Origin: Escherichia coli
GTDB lineage: Bacteria > Pseudomonadota > Gammaproteobacteria > Enterobacterales > Enterobacteriaceae
Assembly (NCBI RefSeq): GCF_003334255.1
Contig: NZ_QOWU01000001.1
Strand: one strand, 5' to 3'
Length of the DNA: 64,000 nucleotides
Shown here: piece by piece, positions 12,060-12,962 of the stretch
Layout of the letters: each line of letters opens with the position of its first letter
Position numbering within the stretch: the first letter of the stretch is position 1
Program-made: the position numbers and the translations under genes
Notes under the pieces: model-generated
What the model saw: only the letters and a program-made list of their open reading frames with translations
What the model was told of the DNA's origin: nothing
The model's database searches: none

Positions 12060-12962
12060 TTAAATAAGGTTAATTACCTTATCAATCTCAGCAAGAGGTA
12101 AATTTGCCATCTCTGCAACGTCTTCCCGAGACATTCCTTTACTCAGAAGACGCTGGGCGAATTCCTGACTTACTTCCTGTCTTCCCTGCTGAATCCCCTT
12201 CTCAATCCCTTTCTCTTCAAACCACTGCGCCAGCGTCATCATAGACTCCCCTCCCGTTTCCCTGTCTCTCAACACACCGTAAAACAAATCCGCTTGTTCA
12301 GTATGACCGCGTTGCAGCATATAGTTTTGCATGGCAACTAACTGACTTCCGCTAGTGTACCCTTCGTCGATCAGCGTGACCAGTTGCTCAAGCAATAACA
12401 TTAAGTCGCGCTGGCGAATATGTTTTTGCAGTAGTTCGAGAATCGCAATCCGCCGATGTTGCATGATTTCGTCATCCGGTGTGATGGTGATATCCACCAG
12501 CGGGAAAGGACTGTTATAGACGCGTCGCGCCAGCTCCGGCGAGTAAAACATATCAAACCAGCACATTGATAGCGGATAAGGTGTGGCCTCGCCCTGATAA
12601 AACAGTATCGGCACCACCAGCGGCAGCTTATCGTGGTCAGCCTCCAGATGCCGGTGCATGGCGGCTATAGAATAACGCATCATGCGAAAGGCCATTTTCT
12701 TATCCGGCTTGCTTTGGTGTTCAATCACAACATGCAGATAACCGGGATTGCCCTGCATTTGCACGGAATAGAGCACGTCCGTGCTGTGTCCTTTCAGGCT
12801 CTCTTCAATGAAACTCCCCGACTCTAAATGAAGCGTGTTGAGGTCACAAAGTTCGCGTAATTCCACTGGCAAATGTATCTCCAGAAAGTCGCGAGCCGTC
12901 TCCGCATGCATTAAAAATTGTTTAAATACCGCGTCATGCGGTGTGGTACTCGGTGCATCCAT
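12060..12962 (-). CDS. rpnC: recombination-promoting nuclease RpnC (transposase_31 / PD-(D/E)XK family, YhgA-like)
   Basis: 300 aa, MDAPSTTPHDAVFKQFLMHAETARDFLEIHLP... matches YadD/RpnC; opposite strand to the flanking pan genes. Confidence 0.85.
   Translation of the reverse strand: MDAPSTTPHDAVFKQFLMHAETARDFLEIHLPVELRELCDLNTLHLESGSFIEESLKGHSTDVLYSVQMQGNPGYLHVVIEHQSKPDKKMAFRMMRYSIAAMHRHLEADHDKLPLVVPILFYQGEATPYPLSMCWFDMFYSPELARRVYNSPFPLVDITITPDDEIMQHRRIAILELLQKHIRQRDLMLLLEQLVTLIDEGYTSGSQLVAMQNYMLQRGHTEQADLFYGVLRDRETGGESMMTLAQWFEEKGIEKGIQQGRQEVSQEFAQRLLSKGMSREDVAEMANLPLAEIDKVINLI

Follow-up and report, generated by a model that had tools for sequence, protein, structure and literature searches.

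The rpnC gene and its nuclease product

The window analysed here, a stretch of 64,000 nucleotides from Escherichia coli (contig NZ_QOWU01000001.1), carries the gene rpnC (yadD, b0132) on its minus strand. As rpnC lies between panC and panD, both encoded on the plus strand, it is convergent with panC and divergent from panD. The genes of the locus are as follows:

10329-11123, plus strand: panB
11135-11986, plus strand: panC
12060-12962, minus strand: rpnC, full-length product RpnC-L of 300 aa (ORF, TIGR01784 and identity to the MG1655 CDS)
13236-13616, plus strand: panD

The ORF coordinates bear out the earlier note, which had placed rpnC on the opposite strand, parting panD from panBC; the stop codons of panC and rpnC are separated by 73 nt. 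The reverse complement of MG1655 NC_000913.3 145500-150000 corresponds to positions 9930-14430 of the window with one mismatch, located in panB, and the rpnC CDS is identical in both. This near-perfect match over 4.5 kb assigns the window to E. coli K-12 and identifies the ORF at 12060-12962 as rpnC b0132. The gene order is nearly universal within the species, since a panC-rpnC-panD query was matched in 5,425 of 5,426 complete E. coli genomes.

RpnC belongs to the Rpn family: with the NCBIfam model TIGR01784 (Rpn family), it reaches 298 bits, the cut-off being 52.1. The nuclease domain and the residues predicted to form its active site are:

12342-12944, minus strand: Transposase_31/YhgA-like nuclease domain, PF04754, aa 7-207 (Pfam E = 3e-87)
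12935-12933, minus strand: predicted catalytic D10, aligned to RpnA D11
12779-12777, minus strand: predicted catalytic D62, aligned to RpnA D63
12722-12720, minus strand: predicted catalytic E81, aligned to RpnA E82
12716-12714, minus strand: predicted catalytic Q83, aligned to RpnA Q84

According to the alignment, RpnC retains the equivalents of all four RpnA residues whose substitution (D11A, D63A, E82A, Q84K) abolishes RpnA activity, as reported in the study that named RpnA-E (Kingston et al. 2017, PMC5350276); its PDDE motif (aa 162-165), also predicted to be catalytic, aligns to RpnA D165, a further residue whose importance was established by mutation in that study. In the same study, overexpression of RpnC raised RecA-independent recombination 2.9-fold, lowered CFU by 59% and induced the SOS response, and RpnC was the weakest active paralog with respect to this CFU reduction and its late SOS induction. 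In vitro DNA cleavage was shown there for RpnA only, the purified protein cutting without sequence specificity (Kingston et al. 2017, PMC5350276). RpnC-L (300 aa) is most probably a PD-(D/E)XK DNA endonuclease acting as a toxin, whose overproduction damages DNA and thereby triggers the SOS response and reduces viability. Sequence searches of the PDB with RpnC and RpnC-S returned no homolog; the sole match, to a designed repeat protein, was no better than expected by chance.

Translation initiation inside rpnC

The 3' part of rpnC contains a second, in-frame reading frame together with several elements that may govern its expression:

12060-12242, minus strand: nested in-frame rpnC-S, with start codon 12242-12240 (60 aa) or 12239-12237 (59 aa)
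12246-12255, minus strand: internal Shine-Dalgarno (SD) tract GGGAGGGGAG, read from the sequence
12184-12215, minus strand: 12-nt (4-aa) repeat tract, KGIE-KGIQ-QG... (TRF, period 12, 2.7 copies)
12243-12377, minus strand: stretch of suppressed synonymous variation, codons 196-240 (codon comparison of 7 alleles)
12354-12382, minus strand: candidate internal sigma-70 promoter TGGTCA-17 nt-TACACT, putative, read from the alignment

On the minus strand, GGGAGG (12255-12250) is followed by the 7-nt stretch GGAGTCT and the tandem ATG ATG (12242-12237). The segment GGGAGGGGAG-TCT-ATGATG (12255-12237) therefore combines a ribosome-binding site (RBS) with an in-frame ATG, and it opens an ORF in the range of ~50-75 codons that ends at the stop codon of the toxin. 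The earlier note had described an in-frame ATG pair at 12237-12242, preceded by GGGAGG with 7-nt spacing, which would encode the C-terminal 60 aa as a separate small protein; the minus-strand sequence agrees with each of these points and all coordinates are right, with a 59-aa alternative from the second ATG to be added. Starting at 12242, the product is the 60-aa MMTLAQWFEEKG...VINLI (full sequence MMTLAQWFEEKGIEKGIQQGRQEVSQEFAQRLLSKGMSREDVAEMANLPLAEIDKVINLI), which on its own scores 57.5 bits on TIGR01784. GGAGG stands 7 nt before the first ATG and a second GGAG (12249-12246) stands 6 nt before the second one, so that, on sequence grounds, initiation of RpnC-S at 12242 (60 aa) or at 12239 (59 aa) appears equally plausible. 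Both positions correspond to MG1655 147,688 and 147,691, respectively.

Such motifs could also arise fortuitously. In that case, the ATG pair would be two ordinary Met codons, the SD tract a chance consequence of encoding Gly-Gly-Glu, the tail nothing but a domain of the large protein, and any small species a proteolytic fragment. The annotation is in line with this possibility, the RefSeq record of MG1655 listing the full-length rpnC CDS alone, with no separate CDS for a small product. A survey of the internal in-frame ATGs in the 47 ORFs of at least 200 aa in the window can be read in two ways: only 3 of 424 are preceded by an SD core (GGAGG, AGGAG or GGGAG, 5-11 nt upstream) and two of these three are the rpnC pair, the remaining one belonging to an unrelated ORF.

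Conservation speaks against coincidence. The internal SD and ATG are kept in 11 rpnC orthologs (three genera and one MAG) as well as in the E. coli paralog rpnA, and the internal Met is conserved in all rpnC orthologs while the amino acids before it differ. Escherichia alleles read GGGAGGGGAGTCT-ATGATG (residues ETGGES-MM), S. enterica diarizonae reads GCAGGAGGAATCT-ATGATG (LPQEES-MM) and Pseudocitrobacter reads AAAGGAGAAAACA-ATGGG (LSKEKT-MG), with the SD core at the same distance in the latter two; the SD core has thus been kept under changing residues (ETGGES, LPQEES, LSKEKT), which speaks against a mere Gly-Gly-Glu coding sequence. In rpnA, the corresponding site is AAGGAGAGTTTA-ATG at M244, with AAGGAG 6 nt upstream, and RpnA M244 aligns to RpnC M242.

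Synonymous sites ahead of the start are constrained as well. Among amino acid-invariant degenerate codons of 7 Escherichia alleles, 17% vary synonymously in codons 196-240 versus 46% in codons 1-175 (Fisher p = 6e-4). Low variation of this kind would be expected if signals at the nucleotide level (internal promoter, 5' UTR, SD) overlap the coding sequence, and codons 196-240 probably hold the 5' UTR of a short rpnC-S transcript. The internal promoter itself may be TGGTCA-17-TACACT, both hexamers of which are conserved across genera (8/12 consensus positions) and whose -10 hexamer falls at the 5' edge of the constrained stretch (12243-12377). A consensus promoter scan at a 9/12 threshold reported no minus-strand promoter within rpnC.

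In other strains, the module also occurs outside rpnC, as a gene that stands by itself and has its own start: a stand-alone rpnC-Ss gene is found directly downstream of rpnC (L006; TUM2802, WP_000404123.1, 65 aa), the latter protein being annotated as 'RpnC/YadD family protein'. An extra rpnC-S copy downstream of rpnC in some strains is likewise mentioned by Zhong et al. (PNAS 2023, PMC10400941). The window has no second rpnC-S copy.

Experimental evidence for exactly this gene is already in print (2017, 2019 and 2023). The internal start was first mapped in 2019, when yadD figured among the in-frame internal starts detected by retapamulin ribosome profiling, with locally raised synonymous-site conservation (Meydan et al. 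2019, bioRxiv 10.1101/520783). Zhong et al. (PNAS 2023, PMC10400941) describe an internal start signal in rpnC with both Onc112 and retapamulin, the presence of both SPA-tagged RpnC-S and RpnC-L on immunoblots in MG1655, and, by dRNA-seq, a transcription start inside every rpn gene. Initiation-site profiling and a tagged-fusion western, which the earlier note had proposed as checks, have therefore both been published with a positive outcome. In the text consulted, mutation of the RBS and ATG is reported for rpnA and a C. difficile rpn rather than for rpnC, which leaves some room for a fortuitous motif; yet these mutations abolish the small protein, and the rpnA start (M244) is the one that aligns with RpnC M242. 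Taking together the profiling signal of two independent studies, the conserved SD, the synonymous constraint and the stand-alone copies, the view of the internal start as a chance motif is largely refuted and we reject it as extremely improbable.

Directly downstream of the start, the opposite pattern is seen. KGIE/KGIQ repeats begin at residue 11 of RpnC-S, i.e. within the 8-20 residues after the Met, and this repeat tract corresponds to a hypervariable region in helix 1 of the small protein. Repeat number varies among Escherichia alleles and other genera, resulting in small proteins of 56-76 aa; within Escherichia, the lengths are 56, 58, 60, 62, 66 and 70 aa, and alleles differ by multiples of 4 aa through the indel units KGIE, GRQE, EVRQ and GMQQ. 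Among Escherichia alleles, 37% of the tail codons are variable in their amino acid versus 9% of codons 1-175.

The rpn cassette between panC and panD

The junction between panC and panD was compared across one genome per species with PanD, using PanB, PanC, RpnC, PanD and YadE as queries. This yielded 80 Enterobacteriaceae loci, two of which were uninformative. Among the 78 informative loci, those with an intact rpn gene at the panC-panD junction belong to Escherichia (six species or lineages; aa identity 85-96%), Pseudocitrobacter (two; 61-63%) and S. enterica diarizonae (57%). The MAG UBA5654 has a frameshifted copy and S. enterica arizonae a decayed remnant with an internal deletion of ~760 bp. 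Rpn-like sequence is absent between panC and panD in the other 67 informative loci, in which both genes are 31-262 bp apart; these empty sites include Citrobacter, Klebsiella (including K. pneumoniae), Enterobacter, Raoultella, Kluyvera and Pluralibacter. Since rpn does not occupy the junction across all Enterobacteriaceae, a lineage-restricted insertion is supported. The suggestion of the earlier note that the insertion is lineage-specific stands in this sense, but the lineage has to be widened beyond Escherichia to Pseudocitrobacter, S. diarizonae and the remnant of S. arizonae. The comparison with Salmonella or Klebsiella that it had put forward gives contiguous pan genes without rpn in K. 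pneumoniae, an occupied site in S. diarizonae and a remnant in S. arizonae. Kingston et al. (2017, PMC5350276) had already noticed rpnC orthologs between panC and panD in some members of the Enterobacteriaceae, and explained them by two independent insertions.

The comparison with empty sites outlines the inserted segment and its surroundings:

11984-13138, no strand assigned: inserted rpn cassette, approximate, ~1.15 kb
11991-12021, no strand assigned: terminator-like G+C-rich hairpin of 12 pairs in the gap where panC and rpnC converge
13141-13169, plus strand: panD promoter-like site TAGACA-17-AATACT, 9/12 consensus match

Empty sites read ...GCC CAG TAG ACA GGGG TTAAAAATC GGGCAATACT..., and homology of the window to them ends after panC codon 283 and restarts at 13139 (AGTAGACA). 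Besides rpnC and ~175 nt of sequence upstream of it, the cassette contains the hairpin and a new stop codon for panC, so that PanC is deprived of its terminal Gln. The hairpin is likely a bidirectional terminator carried by the insert and serving both panC and rpnC, and an equivalent hairpin follows panC in the occupied sites of Pseudocitrobacter and Salmonella. Immediately outside the insert, TAGACA-17-AATACT is conserved in Citrobacter, Klebsiella and others, and its TAG is the panC stop codon of empty sites. This element may act as the panD promoter, and panD would tolerate the split because the insert ends just before it. This old insertion fits exactly between the penultimate panC codon and the -35 box of the putative panD promoter, which would explain why neither panBC nor panD is inactivated by the split.

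The junctions, GCG|TAATAC... and ...CAGATG|AGTAGACA, display neither terminal inverted repeats nor a target-site duplication, and a conventional insertion sequence or transposon is rejected on this basis. A broader proposal would be that rpnC is chiefly a selfish element, akin to a transposase or a homing endonuclease, that inserts site-specifically at panC/panD, perhaps repeatedly, with the small ORF being incidental. Its patchy distribution at one precise junction is what such an element might produce, the argument for two independent insertions was accompanied by the idea of homing-like targeting (Kingston et al. 2017, PMC5350276), and the family is abundant on plasmids (4,836 of 72,556 records). 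However, the plain junctions match what Zhong et al. (PNAS 2023, PMC10400941) state for the rpn family, namely no inverted repeats, no target duplications and no evidence of autonomous transposition, and DNA cleavage by purified RpnA lacks sequence specificity (Kingston et al. 2017, PMC5350276). Moreover, one insertion that spread or was lost by recombination in the flanking pan genes accounts no less well for junctions that agree to within a few bases and for non-coding parts that are homologous across genera. We thus regard a mainly selfish element as very unlikely.

How many times the cassette entered this site is a distinct matter. The junctions are common to Escherichia, Pseudocitrobacter and Salmonella, and the non-coding parts of the insert are recognisably homologous; these features are at least compatible with a single insertion rather than two independent events. 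At the nucleotide level, E. coli and S. diarizonae are 78% identical in panC, 83% in panD, 71% in the nuclease domain and about 60% in the tail. We tentatively propose, as a scenario that falls somewhat short of an even chance, that a single insertion took place in an ancestor or donor common to Escherichia, Salmonella and Pseudocitrobacter, and that recombination in the pan genes on either side subsequently spread the cassette, let it diverge or removed it. If this holds true, stages of decay would be seen in the S. arizonae remnant and in the UBA5654 copy with its frameshift, and the fast divergence of the tail, seen in its variable codons, would reflect an arms race and not separate origins.

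RpnC-L and RpnC-S among known toxin-antitoxin systems

For RpnC itself, published work covers initiation within the gene, the small protein, the toxic and SOS-inducing effect of the large form, and repeat-matched neutralisation by the small one. Concerning the last point, Zhong et al. (PNAS 2023, PMC10400941) present RpnS proteins as antitoxins of toxic RpnL nucleases: RpnC-S blocks the dinD-lacZ SOS induction caused by RpnC-L only if both have an equal number of KGIE repeats, addition of a KGIE repeat alters the L/S specificity, and rpnC-L is driven in this assay by a foreign rhamnose promoter. The Rpn toxin/RpnS antitoxin gene-within-gene layout to which the earlier note pointed is therefore on record for rpnC itself. 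For the paralog, purified RpnA-S is reported there to co-purify with RpnA-L and to block its cleavage in vitro. No literature on RpnC from 2023 onward was found beyond that paper.

Based on these data, we consider it highly probable that the locus is a toxin-antitoxin gene-within-a-gene, in which RpnC-S made from the internal start pairs with the tail of RpnC-L and keeps the nuclease off. RpnC-S (60 or 59 aa) would be translated from the internal SD and ATG at 12255-12237, probably mostly from a short transcript starting inside rpnC. Having the same sequence as the C-terminal tail of RpnC-L, it is expected to fold into a small helical helix-turn-helix (HTH)-like domain, to oligomerise via its long helix 1 and to bind the matching domain of RpnC-L, which would render the nuclease inactive. 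A physical complex between both forms of RpnC is suggested by analogy with RpnA. The 12-nt repeats in helix 1 would set L-S pairing, and their number changes fast between strains; as one DNA sequence is common to both products, L and S would co-evolve by necessity.

A different role may be envisaged for the small protein, i.e. mainly an HTH DNA-binding autoregulator of rpnC promoters, a function common among type II antitoxins, rather than a direct inhibitor of the nuclease. The predicted fold of RpnC-S resembles TrpR-like, resolvase and DeoR HTH domains, the RpnC tail gives a weak Pfam HTH_7 match, and PADLOC 2.0 (2023 library), which is without an Rpn model, returns weak tail matches (E ~1e-4) to RmrA and a 'putative invertase'; HHpred relatedness of RpnS to HTH motifs is also noted by Zhong et al. 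(PNAS 2023, PMC10400941). Nevertheless, the reported neutralisation of RpnC-L took place under the foreign rhamnose promoter and depended on repeat number, so that a protein-protein pairing is indicated, and the in vitro block of RpnA-L cleavage by co-purifying RpnA-S points in the same direction. As a main function, autoregulation thus seems unlikely compared with direct inhibition by RpnC-S. Both roles are not mutually exclusive.

At a biological level, the RpnC-L/RpnC-S pair is probably an antiphage defence of the abortive type, by analogy with the plasmid paralog RpnP2, the only one for which Zhong et al. (PNAS 2023, PMC10400941) showed antiphage protection. Rpn L/S pairs are the best-studied bacterial genes-within-genes with opposing products and candidate antiphage systems. 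The present case illustrates that a genuine nested ORF can be recognised from the letters of the sequence, whereas the small product of rpnC is still missing from standard annotation such as RefSeq MG1655. The present analysis established the anatomy of the locus, how far it is conserved, where the insertion begins and ends, and which taxa carry it; what it adds to published knowledge on rpnC is limited to sharper insertion boundaries and a clearer picture of the cassette-bearing species, nothing else being new.

Compared with known systems, the locus is closest to RpnC-L/RpnC-S of MG1655, which is the same gene, with identical internal start, small protein and KGIE region. RpnA-L/RpnA-S shares PF04754/TIGR01784, the same catalytic residues and an SD and ATG at the homologous position, and RpnC-S may have a helical HTH-like fold similar to that of the small product RpnA-S (crystal structure PDB 7TH0). 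Both tails differ to such an extent that they are not alignable by pairwise BLAST (RpnC-S versus RpnA-S, BLASTP not significant, E = 9.5), and RpnC-S is 11 residues longer due to its KGIE/QQG repeat tract; complex formation and in vitro inhibition were done on RpnA. The plasmid-borne RpnP2-LS (ECOR13) has the same L/S gene-within-gene organisation, in which a nuclease toxin is held in check by its own tail, whereas protection against T-even and BASEL phages is shown for RpnP2 alone and a defence role of RpnC would follow by extension. Stand-alone RpnS proteins (rpnC-Ss, ypaA/rpnE-Ss, DUF4351 PF14261) correspond to the same small module encoded by its own gene, and rpnC-Ss lies directly downstream of rpnC in some strains. 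Finally, classical type II toxin-antitoxin systems likewise rely on a small helical HTH-like protein antitoxin that binds a protein toxin; however, they consist of two separate genes, whereas the antitoxin of rpnC would be an in-frame 3' part of the toxin gene.

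Decayed and frameshifted rpn copies between panC and panD

In Salmonella enterica subsp. arizonae, a decayed rpn cassette makes up the 415-bp spacer that separates panC from panD (locus L015, 4583-5000). This spacer aligns at 89% with both ends of the insert that occupies the same site in S. enterica diarizonae (locus L010, 3726-4001 and 4762-5010), and the deletion of ~760 bp that distinguishes the arizonae remnant has removed the nuclease domain together with the first ~18 codons of the small ORF nested in frame at the 3' end of the gene. A copy of rpn with a frameshift near codon 26 is also found at the panC-panD site of the MAG Enterobacteriaceae bacterium UBA5654 (locus L024, ~3854-4716), where the gene has decayed to a pseudogene or else was misassembled. 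Its internal-start region (ESMMTIAEW) is undamaged.

The small ORF and rpn in public collections

The exact sequences of the small ORF, in its 60-aa and 59-aa forms, are both present as called proteins on many contigs in public protein collections. Their names include "transposase YhgA family protein" and "hypothetical protein", and none of these exact entries is named as an antitoxin. In the plasmid collection, panD adjoins an Rpn gene on one 127-kb E. coli record and an identical yadD is carried by one 655-kb "plasmid" (records concerned: H30, NZ_OZ392440.1, and H31, AP026530.1). Both are probably chromosomal segments or chromids.

Sequence variation in panB and a hairpin upstream of panD

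Within positions 9930-14430 of the window, the sole mismatch to MG1655 is located at 10918, in codon 197 of panB, where the T of MG1655 is replaced by G and isoleucine (ATC) consequently becomes serine (AGC). The surrounding 121-nt stretch has a match in 5,116 complete E. coli genomes, not one of which carries this G, the closest match being 99.2% identical. Possible origins of the Ile197Ser substitution are a mutation private to this genome, an error in sequencing, or a change introduced into it.

Upstream of panD, the following element was observed:

13190-13215: hairpin CAAAGCAGGC-ATCG-CCTGCTTCG, located after the promoter-like site of panD and ahead of the gene's start codon

The position of this hairpin is kept, with compensating changes, in the spacers of Citrobacter, Klebsiella and Salmonella, and it may act as a panD leader or regulatory element.

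Pan region and rpn junction in other genera and species

PanB of Pseudocitrobacter vendiensis (locus L008, 2092-2883) is 98% identical to its E. coli counterpart, versus 90% for PanC, 81% for YadE and about 91% for the PanB of Citrobacter. These identities hint at a recombination tract that P. vendiensis has in common with Escherichia and that adjoins the rpn site. Finally, a repeat (…GTGAATCCCCAGG.GCTTACATAAGTAAGTGA…) that is not present in the window lies between the panC stop codon and the 3' end of rpnC in Escherichia sp. E1V33 (locus L001, ~3548-3640) and in E. albertii (locus L005, ~2620-2720); judging by the ERIC consensus, we take this repeat to be ERIC/IRU-like.
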